IMG/VR virus record: IMGVR_UViG_3300035498_001578
Strand: one strand, 5' to 3'
DNA length: 64,000 nt
Origin: an uncultured virus (IMG/VR IMGVR_UViG_3300035498_001578)
Taxonomy: Duplodnaviria > Heunggongvirae > Uroviricota > Caudoviricetes
Shown here piece by piece: positions 4,147-53,642 of this stretch. Below the pieces are notes generated by a model that did no database searches, was not told where the DNA came from, and was given only the letters and a program-made list of their open reading frames with translations. The translations under genes and the position numbers were made by a program. Every line of letters begins with the position of its first letter. The first letter of the stretch is position 1.

Positions 4147-5500
4147 TCATTAAATTATATATAGAGAAAATAATGTATAGAGAAATAACATATAAAGAAA
4201 CAATAATTAAATAACATATATAAATATAGCTCAATAAATGCCGTTTGATAATTGTTGCTTTCCCAAAAAACAGCTCAAAAATTACCCCGTAATTTAAGGG
4301 GGGTATGCCCAGCAATATATACAAAAAACGGGTTTTTTTGGCGACTTTTTTAGGCACTTTTTAGGCTATTTTTACCCTTATTTTTCTCTGTTTTTACCTA
4401 AAAATTAGCCTATTTTTAAGCATTTTTATACAATTTTAAAAAAATATATTTAAGAATTTTGTTGTGTTTATATACAAAATCCACCTTTTAAATATGTTAT
4501 TTTTGTATATAACGCTGATTTTTAGCTATTGTAATCTTGTTTAAAAACAAGGTTATTTTTAGGCGGTTTTTTAGCTATATTTTTGTAAAATAGCCGATTT
4601 TATCATTGTTAAATATATACAAATATCATATGGTGTTTTTGAACACATTAAACAAGCAATTTTTGAACATTTTGTTTAAAAAGCAAAGCTTATTTTTGTT
4701 AAATATTTAAAGCCGATTTTTCCATACCAATTTTGTTATAACTATTATTCAGATTATAACATAAAGTCGTAAATTCTGAAAAAAGGCGAAAATTTATTAT
4801 ACTATTTTTCATATAATGATTAAAAGAATTATACAATATTTGTTATATGGTATAAATTGGAAAAAATAGACACTTAAAAAATTAAGTTTTCATCAGACAA
4901 AACACAATACCGCTGTATATCGCTTTATTTTGCCCATATACGGCGATATTTTGCGTTGTGGTATAATTTATCTATACAAACGGATAAAAGGCAAATAAAG
5001 CCGTTTAAAGCGTATTTACAAGCATATACAAGCTAATACTCAATCAGATATCAAGAATAAAATTAGTTATTGCCTGCCGTCATACTCAAAAAGTCAAACA
5101 TAGGCTTATAATGCGTTATTTTGCATTTTACGGCGGTTCATTTGCATAGTCGATAAATTCCACGCATACAAGTTAAAACGCCGTTAAATAAGCAAACAAA
5201 CGGCAAATATGAGATATGTGCAAGCATTGAATATTATGAAATATGATATAAAACACACAACGCAAAAGTGTTTATTTTTATGTATTTTATGTAATAGAAG
5301 GAATTATTCAGAAAATCAAAATTAAAAGGCTTGCAAGTCCTTTAAATAAAGGCTTTACGGTTTTTTTGAAAATCAATATATACAATGCTGATTTTTTGCT
5401 GGAATCAGCTCAATATTATAAATATTGCACAATCAAAAGTATTAAACTAAAAAAGTTTTTGTGCAAATAAATGAAATTGCAAATTTGCTTAAAAAAGTAT

Positions 5501-5646
5501 TTGACAATTGGCGGTCGTTGTAGTATAATAATAAGTGTCAAAGGGAAATGACAACAACGACACGCAAGGCGGTCGAAAAAAAGTTTTGAAAAATATGAAA
5601 AAACTTTAAAAAACCTATTGACAAATGCTAAAAAGTATGGTATAAT
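5501..5646 (+). promoter_or_regulatory. Two tandem consensus sigmaA promoters
   Basis: TTGACA-17-TATAAT at 5501-5529 and 5618-5646. Confidence 0.85.
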
Positions 5647-5746
5647 GTAATTACCATAAAGGTGAGGGCAACGCCGCACCGATAACACAAAACCTATAAC
5701 TAAACCATTTAATATAATGGTTCTGAATTTCAAGGAGGAAATGACT

Positions 5747-6739
5747 ATGTTAAACAACACAACACTCACACTCACAAACAGATTTTCAACAAACGATAAT
5801 GCACTTGTTATGGAGTGCAACAACGATGTAACAGTTCTTTGCGAAAAGTTTGGTTTGAACTTTTTGCCTACTGTATCAGCAATAACAGATACAAGATTGC
5901 GTGGTACAAATAGGGCAACAGATGTGCCAGCAATCATTGTTGACCCTAGAGATGAAATGCAAATGATGGGTAGTAAAATCGTAACTACTCGTTACAATGT
6001 AGTTAGTTATTATGAAGCCTTTACAAACTTGTTTGAACAGCTTAAAACTGTTGCAAGCGAACCAAAAATCGTAAACTTGTTTACCTATGATAATGCACTC
6101 GGTGCGTATCTTGTAGTAAAGACTGAATCAATCGGCACAAACGGCGGTTTGTACTTTGTATTGAGAAATTCTTTTGACGGCGATAAGGCTATAAAGGTTT
6201 TCGCTATCGTAAAGATTGACAATGTTGAGTACACACTCACAAACACTCTTGACGGTGACTTAAATCACACTGAAAACGCCGATAACAAAATTAAAGGTCA
6301 TTTCTATGACTTTTATAACAAGGTTATCAATGAGAAAAAGGAAATCATTGAAAAAGTTCTTGCTCTTAAAGCTAAAAAGGCTTTTAGGGTAAACAAGTAC
6401 AACGAGGTTGCACTTGATAATAACTTTACAAACCTTCTGAAAAATGTTTTCCAAACAAAAGACTTTTCAGATAAAGCCATAAGAGAATATGGCGTAAAAA
6501 CTCGTGAGGAATTTTACGAGAAAATTACAAACGAGCTTGAAAACACCTATTACGCTAATCCTATGGATATTCTCAAGGCTATCAACGCACTCGAACCAAA
6601 CAGAAAACCACAGCGTGTTCACGATAGCGGTGAAGCGTGGGTACAGCGTGAGGTTGAAAACTTCTTGCAAGGCAAGGGCAACAACAACAAGACTTTTAAC
6701 TCAATCTATAACTTGTTTAAAGATGTAGTAACCGAGTGA
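5747..6739 (+). CDS. DUF932-like phage/plasmid protein
   Basis: Motifs VTTRYNVVSYYEAF and LRNSFDGDKAI; AAGGAGG RBS at 5732; terminator AGGCGGTAC-AAACC-GTACCGCCT at 6751-6773. Confidence 0.65.
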   Translation: MLNNTTLTLTNRFSTNDNALVMECNNDVTVLCEKFGLNFLPTVSAITDTRLRGTNRATDVPAIIVDPRDEMQMMGSKIVTTRYNVVSYYEAFTNLFEQLKTVASEPKIVNLFTYDNALGAYLVVKTESIGTNGGLYFVLRNSFDGDKAIKVFAIVKIDNVEYTLTNTLDGDLNHTENADNKIKGHFYDFYNKVINEKKEIIEKVLALKAKKAFRVNKYNEVALDNNFTNLLKNVFQTKDFSDKAIREYGVKTREEFYEKITNELENTYYANPMDILKAINALEPNRKPQRVHDSGEAWVQREVENFLQGKGNNNKTFNSIYNLFKDVVTE

Positions 6740-10470: not shown

Positions 10471-11826
10471 TTACTGCCTTAGACTTTTTCTTATAAGTTT
10501 TTTTTTAGGAACATCAGTAGTATTAGTTTCTATCTTCTTTCCATCAACATAAGTAATATTAGCAGATAAAGCAATATTCCTTGCAGCGTTTAAATCAGCA
10601 TTCATTTTAGCCCCACAAGCCTTACATTCAAAGTATCTACCATTCCTTTGACCTTCTTCCCAATGACCACAAGAAGAGCAATTTTGTGAGGTATGATATG
10701 GGTCTACTTTTCTTAATTCAATACCGTACTTAGCTGCTTTATATTCAATTTGTGATTGCAGTTGATAATAAGACCAATTTCTCAAAACAAATTTATCTGT
10801 ATCATAACCCTCTAAATCTTCCACATTGATATACTTAGCTTTATTAGCTATGGCAAAATCAACAATTTGTTTACTTATAGTATGATTATAAGTAGCAACA
10901 AAATTCTTTTCCTTTTCAGAAAATTTATTTACGGCTTTAAGTTTTTTATCTCTACCCTTACCACCATTAGAATTTTTCAAAGCACTATATAATCTTCTTC
11001 TTTGGTTTTGTATTTGCGTTCTTGTTTTCAAGAAATCATCTTTTGAACCTAAATACTGTTTTGCTATAGTATTATTAGTTGCACACACAGCAGGGATTGC
11101 AATACCAAGGTCAACACCTACAACAGTATTATTATCAAGCTCAATAATATTCTTAGGTATTCTCAAAGACAAATTAAGAATAATTTTATTATCTTCAATA
11201 GTAATTGAGCTATCCCTAACAGAATAAGTTTTATCTACTAAAATCTTTTTGAATACACTTCTCAATTCATAAGACTTTTTAACATTCTTACCCTTACCGA
11301 AATTAACTTTAAATTTAATATGATTTACCCAACCCATAGTTATAGATAAATCTTGACTATTTAAATGTTGTAAAAATTCTTCCTCGGTTGCATAATCATA
11401 ATTAAACTTCAAATTAATATGTCTTGTCATAAGAGGGGAGTCAGATTTATAGTTATTTATACTTCTCTCACCACGCTTTAAACCATTATTATATGCAGTA
11501 TCGAAATCACTTATAACCTTTTTAGATACTAAAGATTGAGTATCAACACCCGTACAGAAAACAATACCAGCAGAGTTATATAATGAATTATAATACGCAG
11601 CTCTACGCATTTCTTTTACTTCTTTTTTATAATCTTCATTAGTTTTATCGCAATTATACTTATAATATAAATTTGCATATTTACTCATAAAGAGATTAAG
11701 AGCTTTATATTGAGCTTTTTGTCCATCACGAATAAATTTATATACCCTATCTACTTCCGCTTTATCACCAAGTGGTGTGAGTGTAATTTTTCTACATATA
11801 ATCATTGTTTTATCTTCATTGCTCAT
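10471..11826 (-). CDS. cas12f: Cas12f1-like (type V-F / TnpB-related) RNA-guided nuclease, RuvC D-E-D intact
   Basis: VVGVDLG, INVEDL, NADLNAARNI, zinc finger CSSCG...CKACG; Cas12f1-type segments RGERSINNYKSDSPL, GGKGRDKKLK, LRNWSYYQLQSQIEYKA. Confidence 0.8.
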   Translation of the reverse strand: MSNEDKTMIICRKITLTPLGDKAEVDRVYKFIRDGQKAQYKALNLFMSKYANLYYKYNCDKTNEDYKKEVKEMRRAAYYNSLYNSAGIVFCTGVDTQSLVSKKVISDFDTAYNNGLKRGERSINNYKSDSPLMTRHINLKFNYDYATEEEFLQHLNSQDLSITMGWVNHIKFKVNFGKGKNVKKSYELRSVFKKILVDKTYSVRDSSITIEDNKIILNLSLRIPKNIIELDNNTVVGVDLGIAIPAVCATNNTIAKQYLGSKDDFLKTRTQIQNQRRRLYSALKNSNGGKGRDKKLKAVNKFSEKEKNFVATYNHTISKQIVDFAIANKAKYINVEDLEGYDTDKFVLRNWSYYQLQSQIEYKAAKYGIELRKVDPYHTSQNCSSCGHWEEGQRNGRYFECKACGAKMNADLNAARNIALSANITYVDGKKIETNTTDVPKKKLIRKSLRQ

Positions 11827-13165: not shown

Positions 13166-15160
13166 TTAAAGTAAATTATTAAATTCCTTTTCAGTAATTA
13201 CTTTAATACCATAACTCTTAGCTTTATCAATTTTATTCTCTTTAGCTCCCTCGCCAATAATTAAATAGTCAGTACCCTTTTTAATGCTGCTAACAGTACC
13301 ACCATTATTTTCTATAATATCTGTCATTTCATTTCTTGATATACTTAACTTACCCGTAAAACAAAATGATTTATTATTTAATTTACCACTATTATTTTTT
13401 ACTTTACCAACTATACCTAAATTAATTAAATCGTTTATTATATCTTTATTCTTATTTACATATTCCAAGATATTATTTACTAATATTTCCCCAAATGTGG
13501 GTAAAGATAATAATTCTTCTTCCGTACAATTTATAAACTTATCCAAGGTTTTATATTTATCTTGCAATATCTTACCTTTTTCCTTAGATACGCTCTTAAT
13601 CATTAAACCGTCTATTATTTGACTTAATTCATTATCTTTTGATTTTTCAATATTACTTATTACTTTATCTGCTGATTTATCTCCCATCTTTTCCAATGAG
13701 GAAATATCATTTTTATTTAATTTATAAATATCAATAAAGGTTTTTAATTTACCATTACTAAATAATTTATTTATAAGTACAGTACCGAAATTATCAATTT
13801 CCATAGCCTTAATAAAATTTTCTATTTTATTCACTTGCATACCTATACAGTTTTCATTATCACAGTAAAGGAAAACACCTTTATCAGTAGTATTAGATTT
13901 TAAAGGTTGCCCACAAGATGGGCAGACAGTAGGAATAGTTATTTCCTTTTCTTCACCACTTCTTAAATCTTTTATTACAGACTCGATACAGGGTATTACA
14001 TCGCCTCTTTTTGATACAATTACAGTATCACCGAGCTTTAAATCTAAGTTTTTAATATACTGAATATTATGCAGTGTAGCATAACCAATAGTTGAACCAC
14101 CTATTTGAACAGGCTCTATCACAGCTTTAGGAGTAATAGCTCCCTTACCGCCTAAACACCATTCAACATCTAATAATATGCTTGTATTTTCCATTGCTGG
14201 GAACTTATAAGCTACAGCATAGTTAGGATATTTTTTACCTATACCAAGTCTATTCCAATCGTCATATTTATTAGCTTTAATTACAATACCATCAATATCA
14301 ATGTTTAAATTATTTCTATCTTCATATACTTCATTAAATAAAGTGTTTAATTTTTCTATAGCATTATCAATGTTATTTACTTTAATAGCTGCTAAAGTTT
14401 TATATGGAGTAATAAATATATCCTTTAATAATTTAATATCTTTTAAATAAGTATCATTACAAAAATCGTCATTTTCATAATAACCGTATGGTGAGAATAT
14501 TAAATATTTACAGTAGTCAGTATTAGGCAATTTATTTTTTAAAATACCGCTTGCAGCATTTCTAACATTTTTATATTGATTATCTTCGGATAGATTTTTA
14601 TTTATTTCATCCAAACCTTCCTTTAATAAAAGAATTTCTCCTCTTACTTCTACTTTTTCAATATCCTTAAATTGTTCTATATAATATGGAATATTAGGAA
14701 TAAGTTTTGCAGTTGCAGTATTATCTTCGCCGACTTTTCCATTACCTCTTGTACTTGCTTGTGTTAAATAGCCATTCTCATATATTAAAGAATTTGCAAG
14801 ACCATCAAATTTATATTCAATAATAAATTCTTTAATATTTAATTTATTAAATGCTTTTTTAAACCAATCGTTAAATTGCTCTATAGATAAAACTTTATCT
14901 AAAGACAACATAGGAATTTTATGATTTACTTTATTAAATGAGTTTTCATCTACATAATCACCAATATTTTGTGTAGGAGAATTACTATCTTTAAATTCGG
15001 GGAATTGTTCTTCCAACTTTTTTAATTCTTCTAAAAGTTTATCGTACAATGAATCAGAGATATTATTTTCAGAAGAATTTTTAAAATATAATTCATTTTG
15101 GTTATTTATCAGATTTCTTAACCTAACAATCCTACCCTTAATCATTTCATTCATAGCCAA
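13166..15160 (-). CDS. ligA: NAD-dependent DNA ligase
   Basis: PMLSLDK, EYKFDG (KxDG), STRGNG, EVRGE, DIDGIVIK, AYKF, zinc finger, HhH motifs, C-terminal BRCT. Confidence 0.97.
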   Translation of the reverse strand: MAMNEMIKGRIVRLRNLINNQNELYFKNSSENNISDSLYDKLLEELKKLEEQFPEFKDSNSPTQNIGDYVDENSFNKVNHKIPMLSLDKVLSIEQFNDWFKKAFNKLNIKEFIIEYKFDGLANSLIYENGYLTQASTRGNGKVGEDNTATAKLIPNIPYYIEQFKDIEKVEVRGEILLLKEGLDEINKNLSEDNQYKNVRNAASGILKNKLPNTDYCKYLIFSPYGYYENDDFCNDTYLKDIKLLKDIFITPYKTLAAIKVNNIDNAIEKLNTLFNEVYEDRNNLNIDIDGIVIKANKYDDWNRLGIGKKYPNYAVAYKFPAMENTSILLDVEWCLGGKGAITPKAVIEPVQIGGSTIGYATLHNIQYIKNLDLKLGDTVIVSKRGDVIPCIESVIKDLRSGEEKEITIPTVCPSCGQPLKSNTTDKGVFLYCDNENCIGMQVNKIENFIKAMEIDNFGTVLINKLFSNGKLKTFIDIYKLNKNDISSLEKMGDKSADKVISNIEKSKDNELSQIIDGLMIKSVSKEKGKILQDKYKTLDKFINCTEEELLSLPTFGEILVNNILEYVNKNKDIINDLINLGIVGKVKNNSGKLNNKSFCFTGKLSISRNEMTDIIENNGGTVSSIKKGTDYLIIGEGAKENKIDKAKSYGIKVITEKEFNNLL

Positions 15161-28929: not shown

Positions 28930-30174
28930 GTGGTGAGAAATAATTTGATAATAGTTGAACAACACATTTATAAAAAGACCAATAAACATTATCCACTATT
29001 AGATAAATTATGCTTTTTATCAAAAAATTTATACAATTCAACGCTATATGCTGTACGGCAACATTATTTTGAAACGGGTAAATATTTAAACTATTTTAAT
29101 GTAAATAAGTTATTTTTATCTGAAAATCAAAAAGACTATAGAGCATTCCCGTCAAGGGTTGGCAATATGACACAAAAGTTAGTTGATACAGGATTTAAAA
29201 GTTTCTTTGCTTTATTAAAATTAAAAAAGCAAGGTAAATATAACAAATCAGTAAATATGCCAAAATATTTAAAAAAGGACGGTAGGCAAGTCGTTCACTA
29301 TACTAATAAAGCATTATTAAGAAAAGAAAAAGGATTTATAGGTTTATCGGGAATACCATTATCGGATTTTAAAATAAAAGTCGAAGATAATAAAAAAATT
29401 AAGTTTATAAGAATTATTCCTAAAGGTGGATATATAATATTGGAAATAGCAAAAGAAATCCAAGAACCACCATTAAAAATAAATAATAATTACGCTGCTA
29501 TAGATTTAGGAATAAACAATTTAGCTACTGTAACTTCTAATGTAATGCAACCGTTTATAATAAACGGAAAACCTTTAAAATCTATAAACCAATATTACAA
29601 TAAAAAGTATAGTAAATTAAAATCAGAAGTAAACGGAAGATATAAAACTTATAAAACTTATAAAACAACAAAAAGAATGAATAGTTTATCTTTAAAGAGA
29701 AATAATAAAATAAAAGATTATTTACATAAAGCAAGTAGATTATTAGTGAATCATTTAGTTTCCAATAATATAAGCTTATTAATTATAGGTTATAATAAAG
29801 GATGGAAACAAGACACAAATATGGGAAATGTAAATAATCAAAATTTTGTTTTCATTCCTTTTCTTACATTTATTGATATGCTTATTTATAAATGTAAATT
29901 GGTAGGTATAGATGTTGTTTTAACCGAGGAAAATTATACAAGCCAATGTAGTTTTATTGACAATGAAAAAGTAACCAAGCATAAAAAATATGCTGGGAAA
30001 AGAGTTAAGCGTGGATTATTTAAAACAAGAAAAAAGAAATTTATTAACGCTGACGTAAACGGTAGTTATAATATAATGAAAAAATATTTAACTAAAAAGG
30101 CAGTATGGAATAAGAAAATTTTCTTAGACTGTATAGAGGTGTGCAATACGCCAACGATTTTTACTATTAAATAA
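28930..30174 (+). mobile_element. tnpB: Solo IS200/IS605-family TnpB (no tnpA nearby)
   Basis: SKNLYN, AIDLGINN, IIGYNKGWKQ, EENYTS, RVKRGLF, INADVNGSYNI. Confidence 0.9.
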
Positions 30175-32396: not shown

Positions 32397-32711
32397 TTAC
32401 GCTACAAGTTCTCTTACATTTTTATTTTTGGTGTACATTTCTCTCTCAACAAAACAATCACCAAATCTGTCATTCAAATTAAGCAAGTCAGATAATCTTA
32501 CATATCCCCACTCCCATACAACTACATAATGATAGCCAAAGAATAACCAATCTCCGTCCTCTTGCTGTTCACCCTCGGTAACTAACCAAGTGAAATTAGC
32601 ACGAGGGGAAAAGAACTTTACAATTACTTTCGCATTCATACCCTCACCATCGTGTGAGTAAATTGGGTTTTTTCTCAACTCGTTTTCGATTTCCTTAGTC
32701 ATTAACTTCAT
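32397..32711 (-). CDS. DUF2958-like protein
   Basis: VKFFSP...TWLVTEG...FFG...EWGYV.LSDL...VER. Confidence 0.75.
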   Translation of the reverse strand: MKLMTKEIENELRKNPIYSHDGEGMNAKVIVKFFSPRANFTWLVTEGEQQEDGDWLFFGYHYVVVWEWGYVRLSDLLNLNDRFGDCFVEREMYTKNKNVRELVA

Positions 32712-34428: not shown

Positions 34429-34889
34429 GCTCCTTTCATTAGCTCTTTAAAAATCAAGTGTTCGGTTTTGTTTAGTTAAGACCTTACTCTTAACTTCTAA
34501 ATATATTATAGCATATTATTTAGAAAAAGTCTAATACTTAAAACTTATATTTATTATAAGTTTATAATTATAAATAAAAATTTATATTTAGAAAACATTT
34601 ATAGAAAATATTCAGAAAATTATTTAAAAAATATTCAGAAAAACTTTCGCAGCATTCCGCAGCTCGCCCCTGCACTAACTATTAAATGATTTATTAAAGA
34701 AGTGTTTATTTAAGAAAAAAGTTTTAAATATTTAAAATTGATATTTATTTAAGAAAAAATATTTAAAAAAGATATTTGATGAATGTTATGGGTTTAAATA
34801 AATCGTTTAATAGTTAGAAAAAGAATTCAAAAAAGAAGTTAAAAAAAGAGATTAAAAAAAATAATTTTTAAATAAAAAACAAGTAGGTT

Positions 34890-35288
34890 TTACCCTACTT
34901 GTTCGACAGCGACCAATCGACAATTGTCGATATTGGTACGCATACCATTAGAGAAGTACGCATACCTACACTGCACACGACCGTATCTGTCGCAGAACGG
35001 TCTTATGTCAGTGACAACAGCGACAGTGCCAACAGGGACTTTTCGTCCCTTGAACACCTCAACAGTATCACCCTTACAGATGATACCATTGTGGTTCAAC
35101 CACAAATGACGAACCTCGTCATTCAGCGGAATTTTATAGAGTTCCGCATTCTCTCGCTCCACCTGTGGGTTGTCAGCATCCCACACGATTTTGCTAAAGG
35201 ACTCCCCTGTTACAGGGTTGAAAAAAGTTGCCTCTGTAACAGAAAAACCAGCCTCGTTTACCTTAAAAAATCTATTCATAGTTGTCAT
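34890..35288 (-). CDS. Hypothetical protein with SH3/KOW-like C-terminus, GC-richer than neighbours
   Basis: KGDTVEVFKGRKVPVGTVAVV; own promoter. Confidence 0.7.
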   Translation of the reverse strand: MTTMNRFFKVNEAGFSVTEATFFNPVTGESFSKIVWDADNPQVERENAELYKIPLNDEVRHLWLNHNGIICKGDTVEVFKGRKVPVGTVAVVTDIRPFCDRYGRVQCRYAYFSNGMRTNIDNCRLVAVEQVG

Positions 35289-35527
35289 AATTAAAATCCC
35301 CTTTCGAATTAAATATAATGTATTGAGTTTACGCTTGTTAAGAGGAGCTATGTGCTTTCCCTTAACTTCTAAATATATTATAGCATACTATTTAGAAAAT
35401 GTCCAATACTTTAAACCTATATTTATTATAAGTTTTTTATTATATGGGTAAAATTAAATATTTTATCAAATCATTAAATACCAAATTTTTACTTGACAAC
35501 CAATTTATGATATGTTATTATAATATT

Positions 35528-35700
35528 GTGAAAATAATAAGCACCCATATTTTTGTAAAAAAGTATGTTATGGTGACTTCGGGTGATTTGCCATCCGTAG
35601 GGTGAGGGTAGCTCATTTCACATACAGTTCAACGCTGCTGTAGAGCTTTAAGGTTACACCGAATTGATGTAGTAATCCACCACTCACCAAATTTAGTATA
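35528..35700 (+). ncRNA. Candidate structured ncRNA
   Basis: TTGACA-17-TATTAT promoter at 35493-35521, no ORF, several nested stems. Confidence 0.55.
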
Positions 35701-35818
35701 TAATATAAACATTCTTTATTGATTGTTTACTTGTGTTTTTGTGAGAATAAAGTAAATATTTTAATTCAATATCGAATAGTTTATATTGATATATTAAAAA
35801 GTAAATTTAAACTTTTAT

Positions 35819-36025
35819 TTAATAATTGATTGTATTATAAGTTTTTTTATTTATTGCCCTGTTATAATTACTTTCATAATAACCATAAGTAATAAAGTTT
35901 TTATCTATCTGTGTATCATATCCAAAGGCTTGTATATCCAATTTCTTCATTGGTATACCTGTGATATTTTTTACTTTTCTTTTTAAACTATTCTCTCTAT
36001 CTCTACTTAATTTTGTCATAATCAT
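35819..36025 (-). CDS. Small basic protein
   Basis: 68 aa, directly after 36032-36571. Confidence 0.6.
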   Translation of the reverse strand: MIMTKLSRDRENSLKRKVKNITGIPMKKLDIQAFGYDTQIDKNFITYGYYESNYNRAINKKTYNTINY

Positions 36026-36571: not shown

Positions 36572-36850
36572 TTTTCATAACCCCTTTCAAAAGTTACAAG
36601 TATTTTTTTGTTTACAAGTATATTATAGCATATAAGGCAATGAATTTCAAATACTTTAATCTTATAATTATTATAATATTTTTATTATATGTTAGCTGAA
36701 CCCTGTGTAGCACTCCCTGTGGTTATTATTAAATGATTTAATAAGTAACGAGAGAGCTGAATTGTTAAAAAATTAACAATTATAATATATTTTTTCATTA
36801 TATATTTTTCTAAAAATAAAAAAGGTGAGGTTTTACCCTCACCCTATTTA

Positions 36851-41870: not shown

Positions 41871-42422
41871 TTAAGCAAGCCATAGCCAAGCATTTCCATT
41901 TTCATCTCCATCTTCATCGATATTGTGTTCGATAATCACATCAAGAACCTGTTCTCCAAGAAATTCAGATATTTTTTTATGAACGTCAAGATAGGGTATT
42001 TCTTCGTTATCTGCATTGTAAAAACAAGTACAACCATTTACTTCTTTTATTTTAACACATTCAAAGTCAGTTATTCTCCACACCATTTCTTCAAAATATA
42101 TAAACTCACAAGCTATCATTTTTCTTTGGGGAGAAAGGTATGCTTCGCAATCTTCTACCTCCATACAACTTTTGAGTTTATATCCCTCTGTTTTAAGTTC
42201 GTCAATAGATACCATATATCTATTATCTACATTTGAAATATCTTCACTCTTACAGTTTATGCAAGTTGGAGCATAATCATCGTCTTCAAAATAATAGTGA
42301 AAAAGAAGCATCAAACTACCGCATTTATTACATTTGCAAAAATGTCCTTTTTTTCTATAACAACCATCCATATATGCAACTACATTTACAATTCCTTTTG
42401 TTGCTACTTCTTTCATAATCAT
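41871..42422 (-). CDS. Zinc-ribbon fusion protein (copy 1)
   Basis: FCKCNKCGSLML...CINCKS. Confidence 0.75.
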   Translation of the reverse strand: MIMKEVATKGIVNVVAYMDGCYRKKGHFCKCNKCGSLMLLFHYYFEDDDYAPTCINCKSEDISNVDNRYMVSIDELKTEGYKLKSCMEVEDCEAYLSPQRKMIACEFIYFEEMVWRITDFECVKIKEVNGCTCFYNADNEEIPYLDVHKKISEFLGEQVLDVIIEHNIDEDGDENGNAWLWLA

Positions 42423-42623
42423 AATTAAAAACCTCCTTAAAATTCTTAAACTAACTTTTTTGTTTACAACTATATTATATCAGATAAAGTCATAAATTGC
42501 AAATACTTTAATCCTATATTTATTATTGCTTTATAATTATATGCCTATTGTTTTAATAAATTATTTAACAACAACATACAAATAAAAAAGGTGAGATAAT
42601 CTCTCACCTTTCATTTTTAGTAA

Positions 42624-43172
42624 TTATCCTCTTACTTCAATCCATACAGTTTCAAAATCAAAACCTGTGTTATCGGTTTCGTGTTTAATATGCAAGTCAA
42701 TAACTTCTTCTCCGAGAAATTCGCCTATTTTATCAAGAACATCTCTATAAGACATTTCGTCATCGTCTGCATTGTAAAAATTAACTTCGCTGTTTTTTTC
42801 TTCCATTACAATATCTTCATAGTTAAATATTCTCCATAAGATTTCTTCAAATGCAAATAATGGACTTACTATTGTTTTTCTTGGAGCAAAGTATATATCA
42901 CAATCTTCCAAAACCATACGGCTTTTGAGCTTATATCCTTCGTCTTTAAGTTCTTCAATAGATACTGTATCTCTATTATCCACATTTGCAATATCATCGC
43001 TCTTACAGTTTACACATACAGCAATTTCATTATCGTTATTATAATCAATATCAATAAACAACATCAAACTACCGCATTTATTACATTTGCAAAATGCACC
43101 CTCTGTATTATAGTTGTCAGCATTATATGCACATACATTTACAAGTTTTGTTGCTACATCTTTCATAATCAT
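42624..43172 (-). CDS. Zinc-ribbon fusion protein (copy 2)
   Basis: FCKCNKCGSLML...CVNCKS. Confidence 0.75.
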   Translation of the reverse strand: MIMKDVATKLVNVCAYNADNYNTEGAFCKCNKCGSLMLFIDIDYNNDNEIAVCVNCKSDDIANVDNRDTVSIEELKDEGYKLKSRMVLEDCDIYFAPRKTIVSPLFAFEEILWRIFNYEDIVMEEKNSEVNFYNADDDEMSYRDVLDKIGEFLGEEVIDLHIKHETDNTGFDFETVWIEVRG

Positions 43173-46796: not shown

Positions 46797-47363
46797 TTAA
46801 CCAACAAGCATTCTTTTCATTTCTTCTATATCGTTCATTTCCTTTTCATACTTACGCTGTATCTTTTCAAGCTGCTCATTCTTTACTCTTATATATTCAT
46901 CTGCTAACTGTTGCCTAACTGTTGGGATGAAATCATTCAATATAGAATAAAGAGTTATTATCATTTCTCTTTTGTACCAATTTTCAAAGTTTGTACCATC
47001 CCAAATGACATCATTTTTTGTATGATAATCATTTTTATATGTTACATATACAATCGGATTTCTTTGGTCTTCCTTGAATGTAATACATACTTTTGCATCG
47101 TAAGGTGAACCGTTTGAATAAGGAGTATATGGAACTGAAAAACCTGTGTTAAAGTCTTGTTTTTCTATTTTTAACTCCTTATAAGTATCATTCACAAGCT
47201 GCAAACCCTTTACAAGTTTATCAAACATCAATTCATACAACTTAGTCTTTTCATTTTTCAGACCAACAACTTTCGCTTTTTCTTCTGCAACCGCAATTTC
47301 TATTTTATCTCTTCTTGCGATAACCTCATCAACTGTTATATTTTCGAATTTTCTCATAGTCAA
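46797..47363 (-). CDS. Coiled-coil protein (copy 1)
   Basis: EEKAKVV, YELM and QQLADEYI shared with 47583. Confidence 0.8.
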   Translation of the reverse strand: MTMRKFENITVDEVIARRDKIEIAVAEEKAKVVGLKNEKTKLYELMFDKLVKGLQLVNDTYKELKIEKQDFNTGFSVPYTPYSNGSPYDAKVCITFKEDQRNPIVYVTYKNDYHTKNDVIWDGTNFENWYKREMIITLYSILNDFIPTVRQQLADEYIRVKNEQLEKIQRKYEKEMNDIEEMKRMLVG

Positions 47364-47582
47364 AACTTCCTTTCGTTTAAGTATTTGTTTTTGTTTACAA
47401 ACATATTATAGCATACTGTTTAAGAAATTGCAAATACTTTATACCTATATTTATTGTAGGTTTTTATTATACACCATCTGTGCTGCCTATTAAATGATTT
47501 ATTAACGATATTCCATATTAAAAATTTTTCACATAGAAAAAAGGGTGAATTTGCTCACCCTTATTACATCACCGCCTTTTTA

Positions 47583-48140
47583 TTATCCTACAAATAATTG
47601 CTTAAGTTCAGCTAAAACAAGTTTTTCAGCATTATATTTATTTATAATATCGTCAACTTCTTTATTTTTCATATTTATATATTCATCTGCAAGTTGTTGT
47701 TTAATTACCTTTATTGCATCATTCCATACCGCATAGATTTTTGCAATATTTTCTTTAAATTCCCAACCGCTGATTTCCAGTTTGTCATAAGCAGATATTC
47801 TTAAATTCTTTCCGTTATTACAAACTAAAGTATCTATAAGTGCTGTCTTTTTATCTTCTCTAAAGTAAAAACCAACAAATGATTGCTTTACAACCTCATT
47901 ATTTAATTTGTAAAGGAATTTTACTTCTGTATTAAACATAAATTTCTGAATTTTTAATTCCTTCCATATATTGTTGATTTCAGTTAAGTCTTTTTTGAGC
48001 TTTTCAATCATAAGCTCATATATTTTATCTTTTTCACTTTCAATCGCAACAACCTTTGCTTTTTCCTCTGAAATTGTTACCTCAATATTGTTTTTCTTAG
48101 CCAAAATTTCCTCTAAGCTGATGTTTTCAAAATTTCTCAT
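47583..48140 (-). CDS. Coiled-coil protein (copy 2)
   Basis: Tandem paralog of 46797. Confidence 0.8.
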   Translation of the reverse strand: MRNFENISLEEILAKKNNIEVTISEEKAKVVAIESEKDKIYELMIEKLKKDLTEINNIWKELKIQKFMFNTEVKFLYKLNNEVVKQSFVGFYFREDKKTALIDTLVCNNGKNLRISAYDKLEISGWEFKENIAKIYAVWNDAIKVIKQQLADEYINMKNKEVDDIINKYNAEKLVLAELKQLFVG

Positions 48141-51392: not shown

Positions 51393-52481
51393 TTATCTTT
51401 CAAACATAACTGTTTTTCTGTGAGTGATTTTTGAAATGTTTTCAATAGGTAAATCAATTTTATTTAATTCTGTGAAAATTGAGTTCAAACCTAACCACTC
51501 TTTTTTTATAAATTCAGAAGCCTTAAAGTCTAACTTTTCTTCGATATGCTTAATCAAAGTATAAACATTGATTTTTTCGGTTATATCTTTTCTTTTGTAT
51601 TCCTCAATCTTTGTGTTAGGTGTTTCAGATAATGTAAATGTAACATATACTGTTTTTACCTTATCGGAAACAGCATTTAAAGATTTTGTAATATCTCTTT
51701 CATACTGTTCTGTTGTTAAGTTATTATTGATTAACATTTCAATATAACCTTCACGCAACTTTACCTCTTTGATTTTTTCTTTAACTAAAGATACTGTATT
51801 ATTGATTGTATCTTCAATAGAAGTATAACCAAGAATATCGTTTAAAACATCAAATTGAGTAATTATATGAGTATTACTATTTATTATGTCTTTTATTACT
51901 TGCTGTGCTACTTTTGAAACATCTGTACCAAACAACTGATATCTTCTTGCTGTCGCTTCAAGATTGAGAATTCCTTTTTCAATCTTTTCTATATCAAATT
52001 CCCTTCCAATCTTATCATAGATTTTCTCTAATTCTGTAATGTAAAATTCTGTGTACCCATCTTCGGGATAATCAACCTCTATATCGTTATAAAGGTTTTC
52101 AGTTTCACGCTCATAGCGTTTTGAATATTCCTCTGAAATATCGGATAAAAATTTTACATTATCGTCTGGAAATTCGCTGTTCTTTTCAGATGGAGCAAAA
52201 TCAAACGCATTCTTGATATAATAAACATTGTCTTTTTCAATCACAATAGGACTTGTTATTATATCGTTGAGAATAAGTTTTTCAAATGCTTTTTCTCTTG
52301 AATAATACTTTTCAGCATATACATACTTCGCATCAAATACTTTTCTAACGATAACAGCGTAATGATTTTTTTCATTCAATGATATTATAAAATCACCATC
52401 ATTCTCATTAAGACCTTTTTTAATGCTGTTGAATAGTTCAGCATTCCATCCCCAATTTTTTATACATTCATAAGATTTCAT
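51393..52481 (-). CDS. Hypothetical protein, paralog of 52692-53642
   Basis: Shared AKYVY, ARRYQL, DITK.LNA, KTV.VTF.L, ENI.KIT. Confidence 0.8.
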   Translation of the reverse strand: MKSYECIKNWGWNAELFNSIKKGLNENDGDFIISLNEKNHYAVIVRKVFDAKYVYAEKYYSREKAFEKLILNDIITSPIVIEKDNVYYIKNAFDFAPSEKNSEFPDDNVKFLSDISEEYSKRYERETENLYNDIEVDYPEDGYTEFYITELEKIYDKIGREFDIEKIEKGILNLEATARRYQLFGTDVSKVAQQVIKDIINSNTHIITQFDVLNDILGYTSIEDTINNTVSLVKEKIKEVKLREGYIEMLINNNLTTEQYERDITKSLNAVSDKVKTVYVTFTLSETPNTKIEEYKRKDITEKINVYTLIKHIEEKLDFKASEFIKKEWLGLNSIFTELNKIDLPIENISKITHRKTVMFER

Positions 52482-52691
52482 ATTAAAAATTCCTCCTTCG
52501 ATAGTTCGTTTTTTGTTTACAAGTATATTATAGCATATTGCTGTATAAATTGCAAATACTATAAACCTATATTTATTATAGTTTTATAATTATATCCCTG
52601 TGCGGTTATTAAATGATTTATTATTTACTTATAAAAAATATTTAAAAAATAAAAGAGGGTGGAAAAATCCACCCTTTACAAAATATTTATA

Positions 52692-53642
52692 TTACTTTTC
52701 GAATAATACATTTTTACCATAAGTAATCTTTACAATGTTTTCAGTTGTTAAAGGTGTTCCATTCGATGAAAAATCTTTAGCGTTTAATTTTTTCAGCAAT
52801 TCTCTGCCTTTTGCACCGTTAGAAAAACTGCAATGACTAAATGTATTTCTATCAATAACATAGTCAATAACTTTCTTAATTTCAACTTTTTCTGAACCTG
52901 TTATTCCGTTCAATTCAAATGTAACATTTACTGTCTTTGCTACATCTTTGATTGCATTTAAAGGTTTTGTAATATCAATTTCCCACTGTTCAACTGTATC
53001 ATTGTTAGCAATCAAATTTTCAATATATTGAACTCTTGATTTCAACCATACAAAATCTTTTTCGTTTGATTTTACAACCTTTTCAATGATTTCTTCTTTT
53101 GGAGCATAACCGATTTCAGCCTTTAATATATCTGTATGTGATAACTTCTTTTCTGTTATATACTCTCTTTGCTCATCGAATACATTCAAATTTTTCAGTT
53201 GATAACGCCTTGCATCATTTCTCATAGTTGAAATTTTTTCTTCTGAAAAATCGGTATTGACTTTAATATCATTGTAAAACTTCTTTATTTCTGTTTCATA
53301 AATAGCTTTATATTCATCTGAAACCTCTGTAAAAGTTTTTACATTGTTGGGAAATGCCGTTTCATCTCTGCTTGCAAAAACCCATTCGTCAACAAGATAT
53401 TTATTATCCTTTACTAACATTGCAAAAGTCATTCTCTTGTGTTCCCCGTTTATCAAATGTTCGATTAATTCTTCTCTATCGTATGAGTATTCATAATAGA
53501 CATACTTAGCTCCAAAAATGTCATCTACTACTACTGAATATATTTGAGGTTCTGTATATCCTTTTTCTTGAATCTCAAATATAAACTGACTTTTATTTTC
53601 CTTTATACCCTGTGCAAACTTTTCAAATAATTTAATGTTCAT
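52692..53642 (-). CDS. Hypothetical protein, paralog of 51393-52481
   Basis: Same shared motifs; AAGGAGG RBS. Confidence 0.8.
   Translation of the reverse strand: MNIKLFEKFAQGIKENKSQFIFEIQEKGYTEPQIYSVVVDDIFGAKYVYYEYSYDREELIEHLINGEHKRMTFAMLVKDNKYLVDEWVFASRDETAFPNNVKTFTEVSDEYKAIYETEIKKFYNDIKVNTDFSEEKISTMRNDARRYQLKNLNVFDEQREYITEKKLSHTDILKAEIGYAPKEEIIEKVVKSNEKDFVWLKSRVQYIENLIANNDTVEQWEIDITKPLNAIKDVAKTVNVTFELNGITGSEKVEIKKVIDYVIDRNTFSHCSFSNGAKGRELLKKLNAKDFSSNGTPLTTENIVKITYGKNVLFEK

Follow-up and report, generated by a model that had tools for sequence, protein, structure and literature searches.

The window analysed here, i.e., a 64-kb stretch of DNA that forms the first part of a 118.8-kb viral record (G000; 25% GC), encodes a Cas12f1 protein next to which no scaffold or array is found, and carries, 23.7 kb away from this gene, a promoter that reads against its surroundings into a structured RNA. 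Is this RNA the scaffold of the distant nuclease, and if so, to which target would it lead it? A preliminary description, made from the letters of the window, had proposed such a trans scaffold, or otherwise a novel sRNA or ribozyme. The parts of the locus and its predicted partner are collected in Table 1.

Table 1. Features of the window cassette, its predicted effector and the empty form of the sister site
Feature	Position	Strand	Remarks
Cas12f1 (V-U3) gene	10471-11826	-	451 aa; RuvC residues D239/E336/D411 present; predicted partner
CCA + protospacer (empty form of sister site)	32647-32669	+	inside the intact DUF2958 gene 32397-32711 (-)
Sigma-70-type promoter	35493-35521	+	counter-oriented to the surrounding genes; TTGACA-17-TATTAT, 11/12 consensus
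5′ accessory stem-loop of the tracrRNA	35539-35579	+	AAGCACC with GGTG-A-CTT, top of variable length; 94.5% paired, one compensatory pair
Core hairpin	35580-35597	+	loop 35586-35591, predicted to form a pseudoknot with the terminal bases of the repeat (35801-35806)
Long second stem (stem 2) of the Cas12f1 scaffold	35601-35688	+	branched ~70-nt insertion 35610-35678
Anti-repeat	35692-35711	+	pairs with the cassette's own repeat
Leader remnant	35712-35776	+	about 63-65 nt vs 198-217 nt in full cassettes
Single degenerate CRISPR repeat	35777-35806	+	ends GTAAAT; 8 mismatches to the L002 array repeat
Guide position	35807-35826	+	flanking DNA entering the 3′ end of ORF 35819-36025 (-)

Promoter, fold and identity of the RNA

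Around the cassette, many short genes with recurring promoters lie on the minus strand. From 26 to 64 kb, the pattern of the cassette promoter has this single plus-strand match versus ten on the minus strand, and it is kept in all eight distinct scaffold copies that were compared (two in G000, the second at G000:95954-96141, five in the 379-kb genome G001 and one in G005), which bears out, at the level of sequence, the plus-strand promoter inside a minus-strand array that had been described. The copies beyond G000 were gathered by pattern scans of IMG/VR and further sequence searches, and those of G002-G004, which repeat the G001 copies and are not independent, were left out of the eight. Elsewhere, scans of GTDB returned neither the scaffold nor the repeat, a metagenome scan for the scaffold gave 12 stretches, all of them chance matches and none with a scaffold, and the scaffold core found only short chance matches in GenBank phages. 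A 53-codon ORF (35444-35605, plus strand) overlaps the start of the RNA.

The region 35540-35815 folds with a z of -5.2, and none of 200 shuffles was as good. In the structure built on the eight copies 95.7% of the cells are paired and eight pairs carry double changes; its covariation score was reached by none of 500 shuffles, a fraction that is not a probability because the copies are related by descent, and its pair count by 17 of 500, and the covariation signal collapsed when the structure was slid along the alignment. Hence, the folded core of the preliminary description stands, and with it the stem GGTGAG-GGT/ACC-A-CTCACC, which holds over the eight copies, and the stems AGCTC/GAGCT and (T)ACAG/CTGT(A), which do so with compensatory changes. 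The enclosed GGTTAC/GTAATC stem could be kept only as a weak and variable pairing (70.8% paired for the three alignable pairs). The proposed first stem, ATGGTGA/TTGCCAT, had a pair probability of 0.0 and no compensatory pair, and a conserved hairpin, CGGGTG/CATCCG (35580-35597), takes its place; the proposed TTCGG/CCGAA loop pairing was paired in 67.5% of the cells, with two of its five pairs broken in five of the eight copies. Taken together, these two elements were rejected (76.4% paired, no double change). Furthermore, the hairpin placed at 35760-35800 turned out to be mostly the 3′ arm of the anti-repeat:repeat duplex, 35692-35711 with 35777-35798. With the Rfam covariance models there was no family match at the gathering threshold and nothing meaningful at E ≤ 10, and a tRNA identity was rejected.

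The RNA is, in all likelihood, a Cas12f1-type tracrRNA, an additional member of that family. In PMC12255294, stem 1, the pseudoknot and stem 2 are named as the conserved tracrRNA core, and the window RNA has the corresponding hairpin with a pseudoknot loop and stem 2. The same hairpin recurs, together with a TGAG..ACTC stem, in the tracrRNAs of CnCas12f1, Cs1, Ch, Cr, Pt2 and RhCas12f1 (PMC10090079, supplementary file 5), all of which go with C-rich PAMs, and the CnCas12f1, ChCas12f1, Pt2Cas12f1 and RhCas12f1 repeats end in GTAAAT or close to it. A covariance model of the eight copies was run on 21 of 22 viral loci with cas12f relatives and on six control loci. At E ≤ 0.01 it recovered the short scaffold form from 12 of the 21, and at E ≤ 1 from 15; the matches number 27, each of them on the strand of cas12f, and most adjoin the gene and its arrays. 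No match was obtained in six of the cas12f-relative loci, nor in any of the six controls. In 18 cassettes that differ in their repeats, the loop is complementary to the end of the repeat of the same cassette, and the stretch that follows stem 2 to the body of that repeat, each with a score that none of 20,000 permutations reached (the repeat end of L042_5591 was mis-set but counted, and L039 and L049_3867, which are without a repeat pair, were left out). Within the eight long copies, the anti-repeat duplex was significant (38 of 20,000) and the loop/repeat-end pairing was not (3600 of 20,000).

The proposed link to Cas12f is therefore borne out by homology, by co-occurrence in relatives and by covariation, and the sRNA or ribozyme alternative is not needed, as repeats follow all eight copies and the scaffold tracks the cas12f relatives. 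The element first taken for the anti-repeat, CATTTCACATA, shares an 11-nt complementarity with the CnCas12f1 repeat as published and matches no repeat of these cassettes; the matching anti-repeat comes after the long stem. Viral cas12f relatives, such as those of L041:5294-5370, L042:3700-5830, L052 and L055:3338-5530, often have two or three scaffold-plus-array cassettes, with different repeats and on both sides of one gene, and in L041 a scaffold is fused to half a repeat by a 5-nt loop.

The predicted partner scores best with Cas12f/Cas12u3 models (E 2e-112), and its closest structures are CnCas12f1 (8HR5, E 8e-95) and RhCas12f (9NZP, E 9e-78), of whose three PAM-contact residues it keeps two (RhCas12f R119 is replaced by Ile). 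Thus a Cas12f1 effector with a RuvC domain and a Zn finger shares the genome with the scaffold. The homolog in G001/G004 is 67% identical to that of the window, G001 has one close cas12f, and the gene is absent from the fragments G002, G003 and G005. In G001 the nearest scaffold copy lies 27.6 kb from cas12f, no cas12f occurs within 2.5-4 kb of any of the eight copies, and the usual Cas12f1 locus layout, with the tracrRNA and the array adjoining the gene, is not found in G000 or G001. Besides cas12f, G000 has three TnpB-like genes, one of them in the window (28930-30174, plus strand); TnpB was rejected as the partner, given weak scores against the Cas12f models and no TnpB near seven of the eight copies.

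Repeats, leaders and the layout of the window copy

In all eight copies the scaffold is followed by an anti-repeat, a leader and one to nine CRISPR repeats, and every array carries its own tracrRNA. The repeat that adjoins the window RNA, the guide in its flank and the further copies had been missed in the preliminary description. The repeats are of 29-30 nt and the spacers of 23-37 nt; two cassettes have about nine repeats, three have two to four, and three, that of the window included, have one. Full leaders carry an inverted-repeat motif that we take to be type I-B-like. Cas1 was found in none of three records and Cas6_C in none of four, and the cassettes presumably borrow host adaptation machinery. 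The second G000 copy (G000:C1:96389-96600, i.e., L001:2890-3100) has a full leader and one repeat followed by gene-fragment-like sequence and then by a TnpB-bearing insertion element; neither an empty allele nor a homolog was found for it. The nine-repeat G001 cassette (L002:2186-2878 to 5059-6022), unlike the window copy, lies among DNA-metabolism genes, with neighbours that by eye are exonuclease-like, GIY-YIG-like and thymidylate-synthase-like.

In the window copy two leader blocks are gone, which brings the anti-repeat and the repeat together in a single long hairpin, a duplex of 19-20 bp with pair probabilities near 1. As predicted from its sequence, the copy has a natural single-guide layout, with the tracrRNA fused in cis to one repeat. 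The pairing energy of its anti-repeat is -14.8 kcal/mol for the cognate repeat and -6.9 to -10.4 kcal/mol for the repeats of the seven other copies; hence, the anti-repeat has drifted together with its degenerate repeat, which argues against plain decay. The guide position is 90% A+T. The leader remnant keeps one conserved hairpin (35725-35757), which survives both leader deletions, and the stem-2 insertion holds an unpaired TCACA (35618-35622) that is complementary to the TGTGA at the tip of that leader hairpin (35740-35744). Both motifs are invariant in the eight copies, with no covariation in either, and a long-range contact between them is possible.

Junctions and reciprocal empty sites

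The closest relative of the window cassette is the G001/G004 83-kb cassette, which has 94% core identity and the same two leader deletions and stands at a different site, where its repeat is fused to a DUF2958 gene fragment made up of the first 22 codons. The guide of this sister cassette matches the intact DUF2958 gene of the window at 18 of 20 positions, with CCA directly before the junction base 32650. The identity to the window gene rises from 2-4 of 10 to 9 of 10 exactly at the end of the sister repeat, and none of 60 shuffled guides gave such a match. The window's own site is in turn empty in G001/G004, where an ortholog of ORF 35819-36025 occurs without a cassette. The equivalent of the junction there is CCG, in a register that is uncertain by 1-2 nt, and the window guide matches at only 12 of 20 positions, its first 8 bases being mostly mismatched. 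At the level of sequence, the window and G001/G004 are shown to carry reciprocal empty and filled sites. An omega-RNA-like guide from the flank, with a motif 5′ of the vacant site, is clear for the sister cassette and weak for the window copy. The cassettes of G001-G004 are identical and effectively come from one phage, so that the informative insertion sites are only two.

Matches in sister genomes were also found for two array spacers, one after CCA (30/34), the other after CCT (21/23); for one of these targets, the version present in the carrier itself has CTA. CC precedes the four matched sites, and its background frequency is 2% per position. No credible target was found in the sequence searched for 22 of the 25 spacers and guides, with three weak partial matches without CC; two arrays compared with GenBank phages gave no credible protospacer, and IMG/VR held no exact target of the window guide. 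Repeated searches for further empty alleles found none, one of them returning the two filled alleles only. Self-targeting at 14805 was rejected: the match there, which is CC-flanked and has 4 mismatches, is what chance would give, as 27% of shuffled guides show.

On the left, neither junction is that of a clean insertion: G001 lacks about 525 bp of DNA equivalent to that of the window, and the left flank of the window cassette is non-syntenic. With left junctions that are replacements or non-syntenic, no precise two-ended insertion was found, and the cassette holds no nuclease gene. In the G001 empty allele a terminator hairpin stands where the window has the cassette; a recurring family of such hairpins, with a GGTGAG-type stem, closes minus-strand gene units in the window (34877-34904 and 36822-36845). 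The gene order of the window is shuffled relative to G001, and its minus-strand region has duplicated gene pairs (41871-43172, 43644-44690/54729-55784, 46797-48140 and 51393-53642).

Proposed mechanism, rival readings and known systems

We lean towards a reading in which the tracrRNA-repeat fusion loads the distant Cas12f with a guide taken from its flank and targets the same site in cassette-less relatives, and on balance we regard the window copy as a working single guide. The promoter would give one transcript; as covariation shows, this RNA folds into the Cas12f1 scaffold, with anti-repeat and repeat paired and with the predicted pseudoknot pairing of the loop to the last 5-6 bases of the repeat. 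Cas12f would bind this RNA in trans, as its co-occurrence in relatives suggests; the ~20 nt that directly follow the repeat would serve as the guide, and from the four matches and the relatives of the protein a CCN motif is predicted to be required 5′ of the target. The carrier would be immune because the end of the repeat replaces CCN. When both phages infect one cell, Cas12f would cut the empty allele, which would then be lost or else be repaired from the carrier, so that the cassette is copied. Spread by homing, which rests on two insertion sites, is a more tentative proposal, and we put forward with the same reserve that the cassette could be a protein-free CRISPR-derived homing element, i.e., a promoter-tracrRNA-repeat unit of ~320 bp that moves to CCN-adjacent sites, borrows the single phage Cas12f in trans and drives into co-infecting relatives. 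The route to a new site that we prefer would start with spacer acquisition, because a repeat joined just after a PAM is the product of such an event; a spacer would then recombine with its protospacer on the right and one promoter with another on the left. Against this route, a leader as short as that of the window copy might be unable to support acquisition, and the left junctions are those of replacements. The junctions suggest a movable guide cassette aimed at its own empty site, in which the logic of TnpB would be rebuilt from CRISPR parts.

The main rival is that same route of acquisition and recombination without any later function, the window copy being a decayed remnant of an ordinary cassette that lost its array by spacer-protospacer recombination, with the repeat joined to the flank and no present guide function. 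Such recombination alone would also leave a repeat-protospacer junction after CCN, and the degenerate repeat, the two leader deletions and an A+T-rich guide for which no good target was found are all compatible with it. Nevertheless, neither the promoter nor any of the stems is damaged, the anti-repeat shows changes matched to those of the degenerate repeat and prefers it, and the same shortened cassette persists at two sites with different guides, so that we consider decay unlikely, if still the strongest competitor. It is a good deal less probable that the copy mainly supplies free tracrRNA, from a strong, early-type promoter, to crRNAs derived from the other arrays of the phage or from host repeats by way of CATTTCACATA. 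The 11-nt complementarity to the CnCas12f1 repeat would fit this, as would the TCACATA that is invariant in all eight copies and the residual pairing of the window anti-repeat with the other repeats, but the anti-repeat would be tied up by the repeat in cis, no array lacks a tracrRNA of its own, and CATTTCACATA lies inside stem 2, away from the place of the anti-repeat in Cas12f1 structures, and varies in its first bases.

Alternatively, Cas12f might bind without cutting, in self-regulation or antisense to the neighbouring gene, or might be titrated by the RNA as by a decoy. Cas12f guides of fused form are known to play regulatory roles (PMC13472631), and the guide of the window cassette runs antisense to ORF 35819-36025 at its 3′ end; this reading is nonetheless very improbable, since the RuvC residues are intact, the guide differs between the sister cassettes, and the only CC-flanked self match is the chance-level one at 14805. 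We give hardly any weight to a stand-alone sRNA or ribozyme, or to a scaffold of one of the three G000 TnpB genes: against the lack of an Rfam match and the position of the second G000 copy 300 bp upstream of a TnpB gene stand the repeats after every copy, the co-distribution of the scaffold with cas12f relatives and, for TnpB, the weak scores and the seven copies without such a gene nearby.

The cassettes can be compared with several known systems. With the type V-F1 systems of CnCas12f1, RhCas12f1, ChCas12f1 and Pt2Cas12f1 (PMC10090079, PMC13186708) they share the effector family, the core hairpin with a pseudoknot loop, the TGAG..ACTC stem, 29-30-nt repeats ending in GTAAAT, a C-rich PAM (predicted here) and the absence of Cas1. 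Unlike in that group, at least 24-28 kb separate the scaffold from cas12f, a genome can hold as many as five dispersed cassettes, stem 2 has a branched 70-nt insertion and a 5′ extra stem is added, the anti-repeat directly follows stem 2, and the window copy is fused to one repeat without an array. The chimeric single guides of dCas12f-sigmaE (PMC13472631; PMC10691335) likewise collapse tracrRNA and repeat into one RNA, but they belong to a nuclease-dead protein and are directed to promoters, whereas here the RuvC residues are intact, the guide is the own flank, and a leader remnant links tracrRNA and repeat. As in viral CRISPR mini-arrays and the type V-F loci of huge phages (PMC11656645; PMC7162821), the arrays are short, have no adaptation genes and have spacers that match related viruses; mini-arrays use host effectors and are described without a tracrRNA, whereas the arrays found here come with a tracrRNA apiece and would serve an effector of the phage.

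The likeness to TnpB and the omega-RNA of IS200/IS605 elements (10.1101/2023.11.20.567912, 10.1101/2023.03.14.532601) would lie in a flank-derived guide, in a motif found in the vacant site only and in cut-and-copy maintenance, all of them predicted for the window cassette; these papers provide a precedent for the cutting of vacant sites by TnpB. The cassette differs in consisting of a tracrRNA and a CRISPR repeat, encoding no protein and using a predicted Cas12f1 nuclease in trans, and neither a transposase nor a clean two-ended insertion was found for it. In the literature searched, mostly without subscription papers, we found neither dispersed tracrRNA-array cassettes for one phage Cas12f nor a single-repeat cassette that is guided by its flank and goes with an active Cas12f; loci of this kind may be present in the supplements of surveys of phages and of TnpB. 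The Cas12f1 tracrRNA family is already known, and what appears to be new is the dispersed, fused and flank-guided arrangement. If the proposal is true, CRISPR-Cas12f parts would have been rebuilt as a TnpB-like selfish element and would be reverting to transposon-like behaviour with an active nuclease, which so far has been inferred for dead Cas12f regulators only, and a natural gene drive would be added to phage-phage competition. The system would also offer a new Cas12f with a predicted C-rich PAM and eight natural scaffold variants, one of them a natural single guide, and it warns that orphan cas12f genes and orphan phage arrays can be one dispersed system.

In addition, an ORF with a repeated SCNMYMCMYWN motif (L001:8387-8728) was observed in G000 downstream of a 547-aa TnpB/Cas12-like gene (G000:99863-101506), and its sequence suggests a further CRISPR-like repeat array.
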